From: Mustelus asterias | Lineage: Eukaryota | DNA length: 64,000 nucleotides | Assembly: GCF_964213995.1 (NCBI RefSeq) | Contig: NC_135822.1 | Location: 63,488,001 to 63,552,000 of the forward strand | Reading direction: 5' to 3' | Shown here: positions 1,750 through 58,893 of the stretch, in pieces | Position numbering within the stretch: position 1 is the first letter of the stretch | Layout of the letters: every line of letters begins with the position of its first letter | Position numbers and translations under genes: made by a program | The notes under the pieces: model-generated | Seen by the model: the letters and a program-made list of their open reading frames with translations, nothing else | Told to the model about the DNA's origin: nothing | Database searches by the model: none

Positions 1750-1784
1750 ATGATGTGGAGATGCCGGCATTGGACTGTGCCCAA
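1750..1784 (-). mobile_element. PLE tail-only micro-insertion
   Basis: atgatgtggagatgccggcattggactg flanked by duplicated ctagatcatgat (1743-1754, overlapping the element end, and 1785-1796). Confidence 0.75.
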
Positions 1785-8115: not shown

Positions 8116-8530
8116 GGGCAGCATGGTGGCATAGTGGTTAGCACTGCTGCCTCAGTGTCAGGAACCCGGGTCACTATCGTGTGGAGTTTGCACGTTCTCC
8201 CCATGTCTGGGTTTCCTTCGGGTGCTCTGGTTTTCTCATACAGTAAGAAGTCTCACAACACCAGGTTAAAGTCTAACACTTTAACCTGGTGTTGTGAGAC
8301 TTCTTACTGTGCTTACCCCAGTCCAACGCCGGCATCTCCACATCATTTCTCATACAGTCCAAAGATGTACGGGTTAGGTTGATTAGCCATGCTAAATTGA
8401 TCCTAGTGTCAGGGGGAGTGACAGGGTAAATTTGTGGGGTTACAGGAAGTGGGCCTGGGTGAGACTGTGGTCAGTACAGACTCGATGGGCCAAATGGCCT
8501 CCTTCTGTACTGTGGGGATTCTTCGATTCT
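8116..8530 (+). mobile_element. tRNA-derived SINE interrupted by a mini-PLE
   Basis: Same family as 7028-7366. Confidence 0.85.
8245..8345. mobile_element. Mini inverted PLE insertion (subfamily B) inside a SINE
   Basis: About 33-bp hairpin arms plus tail. TSD tttctcatacagt at 8232-8244 and 8346-8358. Confidence 0.85.
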
Positions 8531-12113: not shown

Positions 12114-12588
12114 GATGTGGAGATGCCGGCGTTGGACTGGGGTAAACACAGTAAGAAGTTTAACAACACCAGGTTAAAGTCCAACAGGTTTATTTGGTAG
12201 GAAAAGCCACACAAGCTTTCGGAGCTGCAAGCCCCTTCTTCAGGTGAGTGGGAATTCTGTTCACAAACAGAGCATATAAAGACACAGACTCAATTTACAT
12301 GAATAATGGTTGGAATGCGAATACTTACAACTAATCAAGTCTTTAAGAAACAAAACAATGTGAGTGGAGAGAGAATGCGAATACATTCCAACCATTATTC
12401 ATGTAAATTGAGTCTGTGTCTTTATATGCTCTGTTTGTGAACAGAATTCCCACTCACCTGAAGAAGGGGCTTAGAGCTCCGAAAGCTTGTGTGGCTTTTG
12501 CTACCAAATAAACCTGTTGGACTTTAACCTGGTGTTGTTAAACTTCTTACTGTGTTTACCCCAGTCCAACGCCAGCATCTCCACATCA
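12114..12588. mobile_element. Penelope-like element 3' ends, inverted pair with both tails pointing outward
   Basis: Same sequence as the 3' end of the 56858 element. Left arm 12114-12373, right arm 12384-12588. Confidence 0.9.
12449..12494 (+). ncRNA. Minimal hammerhead motif (mirror copy 12207-12252 on minus strand, loop uugca)
   Basis: Same core as 57823-57868. Confidence 0.78.
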
Positions 12589-14130: not shown

Positions 14131-16440
14131 GAAATACAAGTTGATTGCCACTGATAGACTACAGGTGTCTAAATGGCAAACAAACTTCTAAAACATTCAC
14201 ACAAAGCATCTTGGCTATGCCTGCCACGATTCAGTGGTCATCTCCTGCTGAGGTGAGAAAGGAAGAGAATCATGCATTCAAATCCATGTGCTACAACTCT
14301 CAATCAGATAATAACATAACCCTGAGCATCGGTGGGGCACCTCCTCACAACTGATGATGACATGGCACTGGCAAACACGCAAGAGTGAGCTGTTCACGTT
14401 ATGTCACGGCAATAATTCAGAACCTGCTGAATATTTGATAGAGGAAGAAAAATAAAATTATTCAGATGAAAGTAAACAGAAAGTGCATTATGACTTGAGA
14501 GGATTTAATTGGGTTTTCACCAAGTAATTACCAGTCACAATGTTTTATGCTTTATGGATTCTCCATCACGGTAGACAACGGAATCCACATTTACTAATGG
14601 TTGATCCATAACACGCATAGAAAAGGTTTCATTTGAGGAATGCTGACAGTTTCCCAGGACACTGGGCAAACCTAAGCATACAGTGACTGAACATTCTGTT
14701 CAAAGATCTTGTGCAATCACATCTCTTTCGCGAGGTTATATATTAAAATCAATTGTTTTTAAGCTGTAATTACATAACCTGGCAATTGTGTTAGTCTGTG
14801 TTCGAACCAATGCTAAATATTGTGCAAGTTCATGACCTATAGTCATATACTCTATCGGTATCCTGTTTTATCAAGGGAAAACTGAACCTGCAACTCTCAA
14901 ATCGAATCTTTCAGATCTTGGCTGGCTGGACTTGCAAGCAATTCAATTCAAAAGTTTTAACTTGTAGTTAATGCGAACTTAGTTAATCTCAGTCTGGGAG
15001 GAAGACAGTGCTATACCCAGCCTCAAAAATAACTGTACAGAGAGAGGCAAAAGGAAATAAAACAGCCAAGGTTCTTAATCATTGCCCACTAATCTCAGGT
15101 GGAACCATCAAGTGGCAATAGCATTACGTCAGTTAGCCTTAACTCAAATGTGTGAGTTCACATATGAGAAAATATGAGTTGAGTCAGGTCCAAAGTGATG
15201 TCATATCACCTGTGCAACTCGAAGAAGGCACATTGCCTTCAGATTTGTTGAGCAAAATACACTTACAAATTGAATGAATTTGATTTTTGCTGTTTGAGAA
15301 GCTTTCAACAAAATGATCACACCAAATTGTATTGGATTACGTCAGATCAGTCACACATGGACAACATCACAACGACTTCCAGAGTCAATTTAAAAGTAGG
15401 AGCTCTACAACGGGGCCTCATGACAAAGCGTTTGGTGTGGATCGAAAACAGGGGTCTATCTCATACATAGCTTCACCACACACGAGTGCGCCATCAAGAT
15501 ATAGTTGCTACTGGGCAATGGTCTGTCCAGCCAATTCAATAGGTCTTGATTATTTCTTGTGTACATTTCTGGCAGTGCCTCAGTTTCAATCTGAAGAAGA
15601 AAAACCACTATCATGAGGTATGCGATAAGTATGATCTTATCAAGGAGCTTTTCAAAAACGTCTGGCACTTGGTTTACTGCACAACATATCACCCTCCTTT
15701 ATCATGTTGACATGTACCACCTCTTTAGTGTTATTTAGTGTTTTGTTTCCTTTCTACCCCTCTTAAAGTTCGGTTAATTTGGCTCCTCTTAATTCTAGTT
15801 AAACTCTGAAGTAAGTCTTACCTTATCACAGAGTCCAGGGTGTTTTCACTGATCCTGAAACAAAATGAACATTCTGATTACAGGTTTCAGATAAGAAGTT
15901 GGAAAACTTTCTGGAAATTACATTATTTTTGGATGGATCCTATGCCTCCAATCGAGCTTACTTCTGTTTTTGAAAAACACCAAAGCATTGCAAGTCCAGA
16001 CCTCCTTTGCACTTTAACTCAAGAGAATTGAAGGAATAGTGAAGTGTATAACTGCAACGCGCATATATGAGAGAGACAGATAGATATTGGGAACAACCCC
16101 TTAAAAAGGTGAAAGCAATACCTATAATGAATTATTTTCTTGTAAATCATTATACTATTTTATACTTTCCAACTGTAGAACAGAAATAGGAGCAGACAAC
16201 TTAAGCCTGCTCCATCATTCAATACAATAATTTGACCAAACTTGAACTAAACCTGATACAATGCGTGATCCATTCCAAACTGACATATTCTTAAGAATGG
16301 TTCTAAAATAATTCACTAGTTGTTTAGGTATGTTGGTTTTTAACATTTTCAGGTTAATTTTAAAAAATCAGCTGCTAATCATACACAAACAAAATCACAG
16401 CATGCTTCTATGTGGCTGCTTCCTGTCTCAAACAAACTGC

Positions 16441-16796
16441 AAGAAGTTTAACAACACCAGGTTAAAGTCCAACAGGTTTATTTGGTAGCAAAAGCCACAC
16501 AAGCTTTCGGAGCTCTAAGCCCCTTCTTCAGGTGAGTGGGAATTCTGTTCACAAACAGAGCTTATAAAGACACAGACTCAATTTACATGAATAATGGTTG
16601 GAATGCGAATACTTACAACTAATCAAGTTTTTAAGAAACAAAACAATGTGAGTGGAGAGAGCATCAAGACAGGCTAAAAAGATGTGTATTGTCTCCAGAC
16701 AAGACAGCCAGTGAAATTCTGCAGGTCCACGCAACTGTGGGGGTTACAAATAGTGCGACATGAACCCAATAACAAATAGTGTGACATGAACCCAAT
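16441..16796 (-). mobile_element. Penelope-like element 3' fragment lacking the 32-nt tail
   Basis: Near-identical to the left arm of the 56858 element. TSD aacaaactgc at 16431-16440 and 16797-16806. Confidence 0.9.
16495..16540 (-). ncRNA. Minimal hammerhead motif, sense to NUDCD3
   Basis: Reverse complement reads ccactcac-CUGAAGA-aggggcuuagagcucc-GAAA-gcuu-gugugg. Confidence 0.78.
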
Positions 16797-17045
16797 AACA
16801 AACTGCCTCAGAGACAACAGGTCAAATCTTTGTAACACTTACTTTCCAGTTAGACTGAGTAATGGCCATTACTGCAGATGCGTTTAAACTCATGTAACGC
16901 AAATAAATTAAATAGACCGCCACTAAGCCAAAACTATACAAAAATGCTCAATTTCTGTCATAAGCCCTTCCAAAGAAAATACTTCCAACTCTCTCAGATA
17001 ACATTAAGATAGACTAGATAGCTGTAGTGTTCACCCATAAATGTT

Positions 17046-17639: not shown

Positions 17640-17723
17640 GACAACACCAGGTTAAAGTCCAACCTGGTGTTGTGAGGCTTCTTACTGTGCTTACCCCAGT
17701 CCAACGCCGGCATCTCCACATCA
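17640..17723. mobile_element. Mini inverted PLE insertion (subfamily B) in NUDCD3 intron 5
   Basis: 13-bp arms acaacaccaggtt/aacctggtgttgt plus tail. TSD tagttacaaact at 17628-17639 and 17724-17735. Confidence 0.85.
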
Positions 17724-18449
17724 TAGTTACAAACTCACAGATGCAACTTAAAAACTGCCAGATGAAACCACTGTCCATACATTTACATTTAAGCAGCCAA
17801 ATGAAAAGCCAGAGATCACAAGAGTTGGGAGAAATAGAAGTCAGTTGGAAAATGATCTTTTCACCAGCAGAGTCCAACAACAGCTTCAGGACAAATTAAG
17901 CAAAGGCTTCTCTTTCTATCAGGGTCCAGATTATGAGTCAGTATCAAACCAGCTCCTTGTGGTTGAAAGTTCACAATGTGAAACCATCCAGACGGACAGC
18001 ATCATCTGTTGCTAAAAATTGGTAATCTCATTCCGAGAGGCCTCAAATTCAGGTAGGGCGGTAAAAATGAAGCGCACAGTAAGAAGTTTTGAAGTTTGAA
18101 TAAAATTATATTATTGTAGCAAGAAGTTGTAACTTCATTTATTCTGGACAGGGTCTGACCTTGGAATGCAAAACATTCAAGCCCCGCATAGAACTGCACT
18201 CTCCACCCCTCAAACACTCGGCTTAACATACCATAAACAATGTAGTAACACACAGGCTTTGCCACTTACAATCATGCAGAGAATCTGCTTAAGCAATCAA
18301 AGGCCCTTCACTCCCTGGGGAATTAGTGTTTTGCCCATTCCTTTTCAGATCTTTACCCACCATTTATACCTACCTTTTGTCACCATCTGTTGTGTGTAAA
18401 AGTTACTTTTGAACTCAAGAGCAGCTTTGGTAAAGGTGTGCCGGACTAA

Positions 18450-38788: not shown

Positions 38789-38905
38789 GCCGATGGCCAC
38801 ATTCCTCTGAAAACGCCCAATCTTGTCTGATCTCAGAAGCTAAGCAGACTCAGGCCTGGTTAATACTTGGATGGGAGACTGCCTGAGAATATCAGGTGCA
38901 ATAGG
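38789..38905 (+). pseudogene. Near full-length diverged 5S rRNA copy (pseudogene or SINE3-type head)
   Basis: Aligns by eye end to end with vertebrate 5S rRNA (...TCTGATCTCaGAAGCTAAGCAG..GGCCTGGTTAaTACTTGGATGGGAGAC..). Many substitutions, isolated, no oligo-T terminator. Confidence 0.85.
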
Positions 38906-41900
38906 AGCCAAAAGGATTGGTTCCATAAACAGATTAAGGACCCAAGCAATCTGTTGGCTGACCAGAGAAGGTATCTGCCTTTCTTCAGATCATGGCACAG
39001 GTTTTTTTTTACATGTTCCCACATGGAAATATTGTCTGGGATAAATGAGGGTTCAATGAAACACACAAGAACAAAGTCAAACTGGTAACGGCGGAAATGC
39101 TTTCTGAGACAAACAGACAGAGCGTGACAATGGTAAGTTTGGATCAGGAAAGATGGGTAGATGCTTGCTCGAGTAGATCATAAATAACACCATGAACTAG
39201 TGGGGGAAATAGTCCAATAGCCTCATCTGTGCCGTACTCTAAATAATCCGAGTGACCCGACTGATCTTAACTCAATAATGAGATCCCCACATGTTCTATC
39301 AGAGGATCAAAAATATTCACAGGCTTTTGCACAGCTGGGAAATTAAACAGGACTGATAATGGGAAGGAACTAAGAGTTAACAGCCCTCTCCTGCTTTCTT
39401 CAGACTCCAGTACTCTTTTCATTTTTATTATAATTGAACATCTGGTAAACCAAAAGCACTTCACACCAACTCCTTACGCTCTCAAAATATGTCAAAAGGT
39501 GGGTGCAGCATAGTGCAAAGGTAAAGTCGCCAAAGTCCCAGATGACCATAGCCTGAGAGCTGACTGGTGGTGATTTAACCTGAGGATCACCACACTCAGG
39601 CTAAGGGGTAAAGTTGAGAAGGCGGGTCTTCATGAATAACCTCAGCAGGTATGGGAATTGAACCCATACTGTTGGCATCACAAACCAGCTATCCAGCCAA
39701 CTAAGCTGAACTGACCCACAGCACAGCGCAGGAAAGGCAATGGGAATGTTTCATCCTGAACACCATTAAGTTACAATACGTCTGCAGGACAGTGAGATAA
39801 AGGTGAATCCAATTAAAAAGGTTGAAATAAAAAAAGCTAAAGGCTTAAACTAGGGTGAGATTATGTGGGTACATGCAGAATGAGGAGCTTGATGTGTCAA
39901 GTTAATTTTCTCGCACTTATTCAAATCTACTTTGTGGGCCGAAGGGCCTGTTCTGTGCTGTACTGTTCTATCTATCTATCTACTTAATTTGCAGATGACA
40001 CATCTGAACCTTCCTGCTAGCGACTGAGGTGGTTTGTGCTCATATTGCCCTCAAATGGAAAAAGATGGCACAGCAGTTTGATTCACAGACTTGAATTTTG
40101 TTTTACGTTTTATAGCCCTTATCACTTCCTGAAACTTCTGAACAGTGTTCAAAGGGAAATTCTGCAGGGGTTGGAAGTCTACAAAAGCATTTCAAATATG
40201 GCAGGAGGCATCAGTGGGAAGAGCAAATCAGTTAATGTTTAGATTGCAGCCCGATCCAAATCTGAAGTAGTAACTGTCATATTTAACACAATCCGAACAA
40301 GGAAGGACCAGCAGTGCTGAGAAGACAAATCCAGAGAGAAAAATTTAGCAAAATATTTCAAACTATTATACACTCATTGACAAACAATAACCAAATCACA
40401 AACACCACTGTAAAATTTTGTGAACTTCAGTAAGAGAATGAAGTGTCAGTTCGCAGTTGCCAAGACCAAATGTGTGCCTTCAGAACCTTATAATAATTTA
40501 AACAATGTCCACATTTTTCACACACAAAAACAGAAAATGCTGGAAAATCTCAGCAAGTCTGACAACATCTGTGAAGAGAGAATAGAGCTAATGTTTTGAA
40601 TCAAGATAATCCTTTGTCAAGAGTGTCACCGCAGTATTTTGCCGGTATCTACATTATTATTCCCTGGTGTCGCTCTGAAACAGGACAAAAACGCCTGAAG
40701 AAATTTTTGTCACAAGGAATTAGGTACACATTATAGCACAAAGTGGCTGAATCACCACAGCATGAGGAGCCAGAAAATGATGACACTCGACACAAGGTCC
40801 AAATACTTCCAGGCCACTTCAAACAGGTGGAGTTGTAAAAGAACCAATCCAACGGCCATCAGATCTAGCCAGGAAGCTGGCTTCCCAGTTACCTCCTTCA
40901 AAGGAACAGAACACAAACCTCATAGAAGTTTCAGTGATACACAAGATAATGAGAGAGAACGGAAGAGCAAGAGGTAGGAAGAGGGGATAAAAGGGAGAAA
41001 GGAGGAGGAAGTCTCCTGTGGTCACTGTGCATTAACTGCAGTGTGAGCATCATAGCATGTTTCCAGATGAGTGACATGTCCAGCCTGACCTGAGCTTTTG
41101 GGGACAGGAACAGAGCAGAGTTGGGAACAAACATGTCCTTGCCAGTCAATCGTACACCCATCCCCTTGCAAGGTCTGTAGGGCCAACCCCTGTACCTTAC
41201 CTGTGATTGTCCCACACACTGGCACAACACACGCAGCTCATTCAACATCTCCACACCCAGTTGATATAACTCATTGGTGGCTCAACACACTGTTATTAGA
41301 AGTAGCGAATCAGCCTTAAATGGCTGCAGGGCTGTTCTTCCCCTGGGCCATTTTTCCCCTTCCAATCTCCACATGACTGAAATCAATCAGAGCAGGGTGG
41401 AGGAATCACCCTGGTGAGCTTGGATTCTGTTGCAAAATCTTCTCAGCAGCTGGCTGGTAGCCTCTATAATGGTTAATTGTGAATAAATGTTGCAGTTGTT
41501 ATTCACATCACTGGCGAACCAGAATTTCACAGATTACAACTGAACAAGAGGCATGGTTGGGGCACAGTGATAAGTGGATTCAGAATAGTTGGAGCATGAC
41601 ACTGATCCTGTAAAGTTACAAGATTCAAACCTTGGTGACAGCGAGGCGGATTCAATCAAGGCATTCAACAGCAAACTGGATTATTAGCTGAAAAGGGAGA
41701 ATGTGGGGAAAGTGGAACAAGGTGAATTTCTCCTTCGAAGACATGCCGGGCAAAATGACTTCCTCTTATCCTGTAACAATTCTATGAAAAGCTACGTGAA
41801 CCAGAAGCAATGCGACTGAAACCAGGGATTCCACCATCTGGCCAACTGGATCCATCAACATGACCAGTGAATATGAAGCACAAACTTGTCTTGCCCTTTT

Positions 41901-46062: not shown

Positions 46063-46104
46063 CCACTCCATCTGACGAAGGAGCTGTGCTCCGAAAGTTT
46101 ATGG
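46063..46104 (+). ncRNA. Minimal hammerhead motif, variant B
   Basis: ccau-CUGACGA-a-GGAGC-ugu-GCUCC-GAAA-gu-UU-augg. Confidence 0.7.
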
Positions 46105-46195
46105 TATTTGCTACCAAATAAACCTGTTGGACTTTAACCTGTTGTGAGACTTCTTACTGTGCTTACCCCAGTCCAACGCCGGCATCTCCACATCA
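46063..46195 (+). mobile_element. Penelope-like element 3' fragment (subfamily B) with hammerhead, inserted into Gypsy pol
   Basis: Ends in ...ccagtccaacgccggcatctccacatca and interrupts the Gypsy RT reading region. Confidence 0.85.
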
Positions 46196-53663: not shown

Positions 53664-53996
53664 CCGTGAACCTGTCCATCCTAATAAGGCATAAGCATAC
53701 TGGCCAAAGGGTGCAACAACCAGATCCACTCTCACAGCCTTCCAGTCCTTCTCCTTTGCTGCAGCAGTAGTTATGTGCTGAGTGGTGCCTGCATGGCTAG
53801 TCAGTCTAATTCCTCTAGGCTCATTCTCAGCCAAAGAGCCATTGCTGCAGGGTCTGCTCGGTTCTACATTGTTTACCATCTCCTTCTGCAGTTTGAAGAT
53901 CGAAAAACATTTTGCAAAGTGATCAAATATCTCAGGCTCCTGGTTTTTCCATTCGTGGTAACTGTTGTCTGTGATGTCGTCATACAATATTATACC
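53664..53996 (-). CDS. POLM: POLM exon 9, palm (GIILYDD...DHFAKCFSIFKL...WKAVRVDLVVAP...ALLGWTGSR)
   Basis: Third catalytic Asp in RVDL and the GW steric gate. ttttag| acceptor, CGG|gtaagt donor, 333 nt. Confidence 0.93.
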
Positions 53997-54638: not shown

Positions 54639-55803
54639 TGTGATGACCTAGGTGCTGGGAAAAGCCAATAAATTATTTTGCACATAATGTCTGTCTAAGC
54701 CCAAAATGGATATTCTGAAAGTCAGTTAACTGGTTTCCTGATTATGAAACTGTTAGGATCCAAATGCCTAGGTGACTTTGGAAGACAAGAGAATGAACCG
54801 CTAAAGGGAAAGAACAATGTGAGAATGGATGCTTCTCTTAATGGTTTTGGGAAATATTCTGTTATTCTGTAAAGAAGGCTACATGTAAATGATTTAATTA
54901 AGATGGGTAAAGGTTACAAAAGTCAGGTTATCTGTGGGGGGAGGGCTAAGTTATGAAAGGATACAGGTGGCAGATTTGTGCATTTCTGATGAGATATTAT
55001 GGTGGGTTTGAGGTACAAGTAAATAGGTTGGATCGAACATTTAAATTTTAGATAAATTCAGAGTTTGTCTGAATATCAAAGGGAGGTCAGAGTTGACAAG
55101 AAAGAGTTTGCAAACCATTGGTAAATAGAAGAGGCTACATTCCATTTTACTGACCCGAAAGCACAGACAAAATAGAAACATGAACATTTTTTATATTTTG
55201 GAAAAGTTAAGTTCAAAGAAGTGTGGAGGAAAATAGAATCACAGATGAAAGGGAAAAACGATACACAAGAAGTGAAATTGAGAGGGTTTGTTGATGGTTG
55301 TGGGAAGACCTCCTGGACACGGCTCCAGACCGGGAGAAGTTACAGTTTTAATTAGCCATCCAGTCAAGCCAGAAAAGCAGTTTTATGCCCAAAGATATGC
55401 AGGTTAGGTGGACTGGCCTTGCTGAATTGCTCCTTAGGAGCCCAAGTTGTGTAGCTAAAGTGGATCAGGGGTTACGGGGATTGGGAAAGAATGGTGGGGT
55501 GGGGAGTATTGTGGGCCTGGGTGAGATGCTGAGTTGCTGCAGACTCAATGGGTCGAATGGCCTCCTTCTCAGGGATTCTACGTCTGAAAGTTTCTGATTT
55601 ACACAGCAGAGTGGAAACGGATTTGAGAGCTCACGTGGTATACTTTATTAAAGCAACAGCTGCTTTGCCTTGGGGAATATTACTCATTTTTTAGAATTAA
55701 AATAGATCAACATCAAGTGTTGCCTTGGTACTTTAAGTAGGGAATCTTTTTCAAGACTGATTTTAACTTGTGTAACTGTAATTTGTGTTTTATTTTCTTC
55801 TTA
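54639..55803 (+). mobile_element. Possible LTR remnant continuing after the CR1 (aataaa at about 58026)
   Basis: TGTGA start, AT-rich LTR-like body, AATAAA directly after the CR1 insertion. 3' end not defined. Confidence 0.35.
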
Positions 55804-56857
55804 GAACATAGAACAGTACAGCACAGTACAGGCCCTTTGGCCCTCAATGTTATGCCAAGCTTTGTCCGAAACCAAGATCAAGCTATCCCACTCCCTATCA
55901 TTCTAGTGTGCTCCATGTGCCTATCCAATAACCGCTTAAATGTTCCTAAAGTGTCCGACGCCACTATCACAGCAGGCAATCCATTCCACATCCCAACCAC
56001 TCTCTGCGTAAAGAACCTACCTCGGACATCCCTCCTATATCTCCCACCGTGAACCTTATAGTTATGCCCCCTCATAACAGCTACATCCACCCGAGGAAAT
56101 AGTCTCTGAACGTCCACTCTATCTATCCCCCTCATCATCTTATAAACCTCTATTAAGTCACCTCTCATCCTCCTCCACTCTAAAGAGAAAAGCCCTAGCT
56201 CCCTCAACCTTTCCTCATAAAACCTACCCTCCAAACCAAGCAGCATCCTGGTAAATCTCCTCTGCACTCCTTCCAATGCTTCCACATCCTTTTTATAGTG
56301 AGGTGACCAGAACTGCACACAATATTCCAAATGTGGTCTCACCAAGGTCCTGTACAGTTGCAGCATAACCCCACGGCTCTTAAACTCCAACCCCCTGTTA
56401 ATAAACGCTAACACACTATAGGTCTTCTTCACGGCTCTATCCACTTGAGTGGCAACCTTTAGAGATCTGTGGATATGAACCGCAAGATCTCTCTGTTCCT
56501 CCACATTCCTCAGAACCCTGCCGTTGACCCTGTAATCCACATTTAAATTTGTCCTACCAAAATGAATCACCTCGCACTTATCAGGGTTAAACTCCATCTG
56601 CCATTTTTCGGCCCAGCTCTGCATCCTATCTATGTCTCTTTGCAGCCTACAACAGCCCTCCACCTCATCCACTACTCCACCAATCTTGGCGTCATCAGCA
56701 AATTTACTGATCCACCCTTCAGCCCCCTCCTCCAAGTCATTGATAAAAATCACAAATAGCAGAGGACCCAGCACTGATCCCTGTGGTACACCGCTGGTAA
56801 CTGGTCTCCAGTCTGAAAATTTTCCATCCACCACCACCCTCTGTCTTCTATGAGATA

Positions 56858-57930
56858 TGATGTGGAGATGCCGGCGTTGGACTGGGGTAAACACAGTAAG
56901 AAGTTTAACAACACCAGGTTAAAGTCCAACAGGTTTATTTGGTAGCAAAAGCCACACAAGCTTTCGGAGCTCTAAGCCCCTTCTTCAGGTGAGTGGGAAT
57001 TCTGTTCACAAACAGAGCTTATAAAGACACAGACTCAATTTACATGAATAATGGTTGGAATGCGAATACTTACAACTAATCAAGTCTTTAAGAAACAAAA
57101 CAATGTGAGTGGAGAGAGCATCAAGACAGGCTAAAAAGATGTGTATCGTCTCCAGACAAGACAGCCAGTGAAACTCTGCAGGTCCACGCAACTGTGGGAG
57201 TTACAAATAGTGTGACATGAACCCAATATCCCGGTTGAGGCCGTCCTCGTGTGTGCGAAACTTGGCTATCAGTTTCTGCTCAGCGACTCTGCGCTGTCGT
57301 GTGTCGCGAAGGCCGCCTTGGAGAACGCTTACCCGAATATCAGAGGCCGAATGGCCGTGACCACTGAAGTGCTCCCCAACAGGAAGAGAACAGTCTTGCC
57401 TGGTGATTGACAATCACCAGGCAAGACTGTTCTCTTCCTGTTGGGGAGCACTTCAGTGGTCACGGCCATTCGGCCTCTGATATTCGGGTAAGCGTTCTCC
57501 AAGGCGGCCTTCGCGACACACGACAGCGCAGAGTCGCTGAGCAGAAACTGATAGCCAAGTTTCGCACACACGAGGACGGCCTCAACCGGGATATTGGGTT
57601 CATGTCACACTATTTGTAACTCCCACAGTTGCGTGGACCTGCAGAGTTTCACTGGCTGTCTTGTCTGGAGACGATACACATCTTTTTAGCCTGTCTTGAT
57701 GCTCTCTCCACTCACATTGTTTTGTTTCTTAAAGACTTGATTAGTTGTAAGTATTCGCATTCCAACCATTATTCATGTAAATTGAGTCTGTGTCTTTATA
57801 AGCTCTGTTTGTGAACAGAATTCCCACTCACCTGAAGAAGGGGCTTAGAGCTCCGAAAGCTTGTGTGGCTTTTGCTACCAAATAAACCTGTTGGACTTTA
57901 ACCTGGTGTTGTTAAACTTCTTACTGTGTT
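56858..57930. mobile_element. Penelope-like element, 5'-truncated inverted pair (520-bp arms, 1-nt spacer) with GIY-YIG C-terminus and hammerheads
   Basis: Mirror ORFs ...PVGEHFSGHGHS...AEQKLIAKFRTHEDGLNRD resemble the PLE GIY-YIG C-terminus. Centre ctggtgattg-a-caatcaccag at 57410. TSD (tt)ctatgagata at 56846-56857 and 57929-57940. Confidence 0.9.
57823..57868 (+). ncRNA. Minimal type I hammerhead ribozyme motif (mirror copy 56952-56997 on minus strand)
   Basis: cac-CUGAAGA-a-GGGGC-uuaga-GCUCC-GAAA-GC-UU-gug: conserved core, 5-bp stem II, palindromic AAGCUU in place of stem III. Confidence 0.8.
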
Positions 57931-58139
57931 CTATGAGATAGCCAGTTACTTATCCAATCGGCCAAATTTCCCTCTATCCCACAGCTCCTTACTTTCTTCA
58001 TGAGCCGACCATGGGGGACCTTCTTAATAAACCTTTTACTTCTAATTTTGAAAATTCTGATTTCTACTGAGATATGTACGCTTCTTTGTCTCATTCCACA
58101 CCCCCCCCCTCAACCTCACTGTATAAATCTGTTGACTCT

Positions 58140-58280
58140 CTTTGCTCTCAGCTCTGACAAAGGGTCAGCTGGACTCGCAATGTTGGTTGTATTCTCTCCC
58201 CACGGATGCTGTCAGACCTGCTGAGATTTTCCAGCATTGTCTGTTTCAGATTCCATCATCCACAGTATTTTGCTTTTATT
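58140..58280 (+). mobile_element. Older PLE terminal repeat with decayed hammerhead (relatives at 19860-20050, 34140-34450, 40525-40625)
   Basis: gctCTGACAAagggtc..gactcGCAAtgTT followed by gatgctgtcagacctgctgagattttccagcat. Confidence 0.6.

Positions 58281-58746: not shown

Positions 58747-58893
<147 letters not shown>

Follow-up and report, generated by a model that had tools for sequence, protein, structure and literature searches.

The palindrome in an intron of POLM in Mustelus asterias is a real and unusually perfect example of a known PLE structure. That the insert is a genuine PLE insertion is nearly certain, and the reading that we prefer, probable if well short of secure, is that a Neptune-type PLE entered a LINE in this intron head to head and inverted in one event, with two nicks 12 nt apart that would both have primed RT. 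All positions refer to the window, the whole stretch of 64,000 nucleotides that was analysed (Table 1).

As evidenced by a base-by-base check, the two arms are 100% complementary over 520 nt, with 0 mismatches and the first mismatch at offset 521. The earlier note had described a perfect palindrome with 520-nt arms and a 1-nt spacer, and the self-comparison that it proposed indeed returned exact identity; the tail of 32 nt that it placed on one side is found on the left arm only, and the TSD, expected at 10-12 bp, measures 12 bp and encloses the whole unit. The mirror ORFs that it mentioned are also present (57201-57413 on the minus and 57407-57619 on the plus strand, 70 aa), but their translations are not identical as claimed, as the centre codon differs, and their near-identity follows trivially from the symmetry of the palindrome. 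The GC content is 47% in the arms and 36% in the central 11 nt. A scan of the 64 kb for hairpins (arm score >=12, spacer <=30 nt) yielded three, all of them in one PLE family.

Table 1. Positions of the palindrome, its sister copies, the interrupted LINE and the flanking POLM exons in the window
Feature	Position	Strand	Remarks
Tailed arm, 5'-truncated PLE copy	56890..57409	sense on -, as POLM	from self-comparison and relatives
Tail-less arm, inverted copy	57411..57930	sense on +	last 2 nt overlap the TSD
Centre base A	57410..57410	+	first base of a Thr codon in 6/6 scored relatives, hence native to the tail-less arm
PLE tail, 32 nt, element 3' end	56858..56889	-	putative distal RT start; tail concept from PMC11167929
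12-bp TSD, left copy	56846..56857	+	
12-bp TSD, right copy	57929..57940	+	first 2 nt common to the tail-less arm
Left target half-site CTG	56841..56843	+	2 nt outside the TSD
Right target half-site CAG	57943..57945	+	2 nt outside the TSD
C-terminal 69 codons of the PLE ORF (end of the GIY-YIG endonuclease) and stop	57201..57409	-	matches aa 575-643 of P0129
Minimal hammerhead motif, pLTR	56950..56997	-	descriptor scan; core from 56988, 6-bp helix II; outer bounds approximate
Mirror copy of the hammerhead	about 57823-57870	+	
Copy B	12114-12588		two tailed arms head to head
Copy C	16441-16796		tail-less solo; 10-bp TSD
Copy D	8240-8345		hairpin
Copy E	17641-17725		hairpin
Copy F	46063-46195		tailed solo
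Copy G	1751-1777		27-nt tail-only insertion; duplicated target overlaps the tail end
POLM exon upstream of the intron (aa 323-356)	58750..58851	-	
POLM exon downstream of the intron (aa 357-467)	53664..53996	-	
Host LINE, 3' part (RT C-terminus and 3' end)	55800..56857	-	RVT_1 E=2e-13; outer boundary approximate
Host LINE, 5' part	57941..58030	-	frame continuous with that of the left flank after removal of the insert and one TSD; outer boundary approximate

With shark PLE ORFs containing RT, a CX4CxxC linker and GIY-YIG, the arm-encoded peptide shares 84-94% identity, in keeping with an EN+ PLE. Note that of the PLE ORF no more than the final 69 codons are present in the insert. Among the relatives, P0129 contains RVT_1 at E=5e-9 and P0123 contains GIY-YIG at E=2.5e-4, slightly short of the Pfam cut-off, while a Pfam search with the 70-aa arm peptide gave no match. 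The linker lies upstream of GIY-YIG in six of the seven named relatives scanned, the exception being the chimeric XRCC5 model, and for the CCHH motif two Cys are found between the two tyrosine motifs in P0123, P0126 and P0129, with the downstream His visible. A CX2-5CxxC linker is common to Neptune and Nematis, and by the description in PMC8557442 the shark linker fits either of these, but not Poseidon. Our label 'Neptune-type' is a provisional one based on the linker together with the vertebrate host; with Neptune-clade PLEs the shark elements share the C-terminal GIY-YIG with such a linker, as seen in the relatives, and a minimal hammerhead. The 32-nt tail matches the one-end tail of 30-40 nt in EN+ PLEs, and its outer end is the same in copies A, B, D, E, F and G; an arrangement of tandem pLTRs, as in a complete element, was not observed. 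A MITE or foldback DNA transposon is ruled out by the one-sided tail, the PLE ORF remnant and the variable 5' truncation. Peptide sequence from this PLE is also included in the shark RefSeq models USP8 X2, FAM210B X1, SNAPC5 and XRCC5 X2.

In the pLTR, the hammerhead core shows an unpaired base and a helix II of 6 bp, and the substitutions in copy F keep this helix paired. The motif is of the type described in PMC4209133, where a single minimal hammerhead is reported without detectable self-cleavage and pairs on opposite strands 100-700 bp apart are described in Schistosoma. An Rfam search gave no hammerhead match in the window, the only match being a degenerate 5S rRNA-like copy at 38789-38907 (62 bits), and the isolated hammerheads folded no better than shuffled sequences.

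The host gene is POLM: on the minus strand of the window, nine exons agree exactly with M. asterias POLM X1 (P0001) over aa 125-523. The intron that holds the palindrome separates aa 356 from aa 357 and is 4,753 nt long, of which 819 nt lie between the donor and the palindrome and 2,861 nt between the palindrome and the acceptor. The location in a POLM intron given by the earlier note thus stands by the exact exon matches, whereas its number, 'intron 8', is conditional on two more exons upstream of the window; we take this numbering to follow that of human POLM. TdT, favoured by matches in the PDB, was rejected as the host gene on the 100% match to RefSeq POLM and on shark POLM orthologues. 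In comparisons with known structures, the exon at 53664-53996 gives a better score for TdT than for Pol mu.

Both RefSeq isoforms of POLM, X1 and X2, splice across the palindrome-bearing intron. The acceptor of X2 lies 37 codons into the downstream exon, and the same shift is seen in a Stegostoma isoform (P0031), one of 30 other proteins examined for it, which rules out the insertion as the cause of isoform X2. Judging from the RefSeq models that join the flanking exons and from the Stegostoma isoform, there is no sign of a POLM splicing defect, and nothing here supports a regulatory role of the palindrome for POLM. At 57833 on the minus strand, the antisense arm contains a consensus-like 5' splice site in POLM sense.

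Within the intron, the palindrome interrupts a LINE that we take to be of the CR1 type. In silico removal of the insert and one TSD restores an RT frame that is continuous across the empty site.

The PLE family is represented by seven insertions in the window, designated A to G, where A is the POLM-intron palindrome (56858-57930). TSDs of 10-13 bp were found at A, C, D, E and G, but none at B and F. The outer ends of the copies agree within about 2 nt; numbered from the tail end of the element, the positions of the tail-less ends range over 33-51. In copy B the two arms end at 261 and 205 and are joined by an 11-nt re-copy of positions 202-212; they differ at 4/204 sites, and host DNA has been lost. 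The left flank of this copy is the RT part of a LINE and the right flank resembles the end of LINE ORF1, so that much of ORF2 seems to have been lost, through either two far-apart nicks in one event or a later deletion. The 5' junction of copy C (window 16431-16806) contains a re-copied stretch of 26 nt, which suggests an abortive template jump. The empty site of copy D is confirmed by six uninterrupted SINE paralogues; for copies A, C, E, F and G no uninterrupted paralogues were found.

The LINE copies holding A and B are 69% identical and are broken at the same homologous base within 1 nt (56857 and 12113). This shared break point led us to compare the target sites across copies, and the layout that emerged is CTG-N2-[12 nt]-N2-CAG, that is, CTG-N16-CAG, in which a 12-nt core is flanked on either side by 2 nt and a half-site. 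In A and B, the half-sites are supplied by conserved RT codons of the two LINE copies. With the register fixed by the tail end, 8/14 half-sites are present at strict register (two each in A, E and F, one each in C and D, none in B and G), and 11/14 when offsets of 0-4 are tolerated; the background is 0.021 per half-site. A null of 20,000 random draws, free in the choice of both trinucleotide and offset, yielded no more than 6 matches at strict and 10 at tolerant register. Note that recognition of the motif was post hoc and began with A and E, that A and B share a homologous site, and that the left register of copy F was set with the motif already known; when the discovery sites A, E and F-left are removed, 3/9 half-sites remain at strict register (about 8e-4 by hand arithmetic). 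The misses amount to 6/14 at strict register, and the right half-sites of B, D and G are missed at every tolerance. The CTG half-site is present in the interrupted SINE of copy D, yet in none of its six uninterrupted paralogues. CTG-N16-CAG is thus possibly a new target rule, as far as these seven sites can indicate. The target bias of Neptune-clade PLEs is described as microsatellite-directed in PMC8557442, as a tendency and not a strict criterion; by inspection, 0/7 of the shark sites are microsatellites.

A search for the target motif inside one arm found none, and self-targeting of the arm region is accordingly not supported. The centre of the palindrome (57400-57420) reads CTG-N15-CAG, one base short of the motif, which may be due to chance (roughly 6%) or may mark a site that was cut again. 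Searches for related DNA in genome contigs other than eukaryotic assemblies gave 87 pattern matches by protein with 0 confirmed and none by the tail pattern, and searches of phage and plasmid sequences gave no match.

The three hairpins that combine a tailed with a tail-less arm are asymmetric at their junction. The tail-less arm has the longer reach in A (553 vs 552), D (74 vs 68) and E (73 vs 63), and the spacer belongs to this arm in all three, an outcome of 1-in-8 by chance; in copy A the assignment rests on one base, which could alternatively be an untemplated A. For this family we envisage an RT-endonuclease, probably dimeric, that would nick both strands of CTG-N16-CAG 12 nt apart, each time 2 nt 5' of CAG. 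One nick would prime at an inner start site and give rise to a tail-less, leading cDNA; the other would prime at an outer start site, probably on the same RNA, and produce a tailed, trailing cDNA. Both would terminate close together, with the tail-less cDNA 1-10 nt ahead, and their 3' ends would then be joined by a template jump or by 1-3 nt of microhomology and filled in, leaving identical arms, a near-zero spacer and a TSD. In a variant, the leading cDNA would fold back before annealing to the tailed one, with the same product expected here. Two primers would in this way explain the identical arms, the matched truncation, the one-sided tail, the spacer rule and the TSD together, and copy C, a tail-less solo, fits with priming from the inner site alone.

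Each enzymatic step of this two-nick reading is one that we infer, from seven copies in one window. A close parallel is provided by Poseidon PAc of Anolis carolinensis, which is reported to nick and extend both strands, with RT from two sites that bound the tail and a predicted dimer (PMC11167929). The anole enzyme differs in belonging to the Poseidon clade and in its cleavage preference for ATT, not CAG, and that in vitro study leaves the later steps unvalidated; a term search of its main text retrieved no discussion of palindromes, staggered cuts or TSDs. Also counter to the model, the spread of the tail-less ends is looser than a fixed start site would predict, and copy B lacks a TSD and combines two tailed arms of unequal length.

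An inverted unit could also be produced from a single primer if the tailed first-strand cDNA folded on its own 3' end, copied itself to near the tail and jumped to the second target end. Such a snap-back needs no added assumption to account for arms that are identical and truncated at matching points, and it would accommodate the microhomology of the tail-less end with the TSD, 2 nt in A and about 4 nt in D. It is nevertheless unlikely, as a loop derived from the tailed arm is expected but seen in 0/3 hairpins, the spacer being native to the tail-less arm; moreover, a 1-nt loop would be unable to prime directly, and neither the stop at the tail boundary nor copy C is accounted for.

For the head-to-head Penelope palindromes of rotifers, PMC3846280 puts forward a model in which an antisense RNA from the pLTR folds back and primes cDNA on itself, and the hairpin is integrated. 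The loop would fall on the tail-less arm, as observed, if this RNA started inside the pLTR. A second template would however be needed for the tail, the antisense promoter activity is hypothetical, and the anole enzyme uses nicked target DNA of both strands for priming in vitro (PMC11167929), which leaves this route improbable for the shark copies.

We give equally little credence to an ordinary inverted PLE pair that was perfected later by spacer deletion or intrastrand template switching, although palindromes are rearrangement-prone (PMC7999016) and copy B, with its unequal, diverged arms and its loss of host DNA, would suit such a history. Against it, a single pair of TSDs surrounds the whole unit, the tail-less end is at the usual place for the family, and the short hairpins D and E share the layout of the palindrome. 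Palindrome instability is also expected to add central asymmetry, not to remove it. An assembly artefact, be it a fold-back read or a collapsed longer inverted repeat, is very improbable: it would produce perfect identity and a 1-nt centre, and inverted PLE structures are known to trouble assemblies (PMC8557442), but a fold-back read mirrors one flank. The flanks of this unit are different from each other and bear a 12-bp TSD, and they connect in frame, so that the RT frame of the split LINE continues across the empty site; in addition, only one side has a tail, and the layout recurs in two sister copies.

The preferred two-nick reading may be extended to the family as a whole, which would then be a two-armed, site-selective integrator with a dimeric GIY-YIG enzyme, a CTG-N16-CAG target, a 12-nt stagger, two cDNAs on one RNA and near-spacerless palindromes as a routine product genome-wide. 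This wider proposal is tentative, and on balance we doubt it. If it were true, the genomic copies would constitute a ready record of how PLE tails and inverted repeats arise, a problem described as open in PMC8557442. From the symmetric target with its fixed stagger and from the spacer rule come two sharp predictions, open to a check in the shark genome and with purified protein.

The kind of object found here, an inverted 5'-truncated PLE with a one-sided tail, is already known, as the earlier note had held for inverted 5'-truncated structures; apparently new are the symmetry of the target and the spacer rule. Inverted 5'-truncated copies as described in PMC8557442 and, for Pen2a_Av, in PMC3846280 share with it the head-to-head copy, the 30-40 nt tail at one end, the TSD, the palindrome at the junction and the hammerhead in the pLTR. 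Unlike these, the M. asterias insertion is palindrome in its entirety, with error-free arms of 520 nt and a centre of 1 nt, and its symmetric CTG-N16-CAG target has no counterpart among the PLEs in the available text of the two papers. Shark PLE palindromes or the target motif were likewise not found reported in the accessible literature, including the available text of bioRxiv 10.64898/2026.07.22.740005 and PMC12910113; Repbase, Dfam, subscription papers and supplements lie outside this scope, and the cut-site data in the supplements of PMC11167929 are possibly relevant to the novelty of the motif. The earlier note had mentioned neither the host LINE and the sister hairpins nor the symmetry of the target motif and the asymmetric spacer.

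The two-nick reading bears a likeness to twin priming of L1, where a second nick primes RT and an inverted segment results. Inversions of L1 consist of non-overlapping parts of one RNA, whereas the two cDNAs of the shark palindrome cover the same stretch of RNA, and a palindrome is the consequence. With human PATRRs and inverted Alus it shares close and highly similar arms, which carry a risk of hairpins and breaks, but PATRRs are >90% AT, so that the shark arms are not PATRR-like (PMC7999016, PMC13155455). The longest perfect human inverted repeat in the recent survey of PMC13155455 has arms of 140 bp, and those of the shark are almost four times longer.

The absence of differences between the arms (0/520) sets an upper bound of 0.57% on their divergence. 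At the rate of 7e-10 per generation reported for the epaulette shark (PMC10587355), a different shark from M. asterias, this bounds the age of the palindrome at up to about 4 million generations. The insertion had been called very recent, for which this bound is too loose; what stands is that the palindrome is younger than copy B, or was homogenised (0/520 vs 4/204, p about 3e-5).

When folded computationally, the POLM pre-mRNA strand is predicted to form one full-length duplex, in agreement with the 520-bp RNA duplex that the earlier note foresaw, and action of ADAR or Dicer on such a duplex is plausible. The suggested sequestration of the hammerhead would probably be of minor impact, given that a single minimal hammerhead is described without detectable self-cleavage (PMC4209133). 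Most likely, the palindrome serves no function for the host and is a by-product, either neutral or mildly harmful. Long, identical and unspaced arms represent a high-risk profile for instability (PMC7999016), and shark palindromes would offer a natural test of the tolerance of the vertebrate germ line for perfect palindromes. Given that the seven copies in 64 kb include three short-spacer hairpins and, in addition, one inverted pair, shark genomes may hold many such palindromes. An older short repeat at 58155-58246 and 40528-40619 begins with a decayed hammerhead-like sequence and, by its resemblance, is possibly a pLTR relic of another PLE family.
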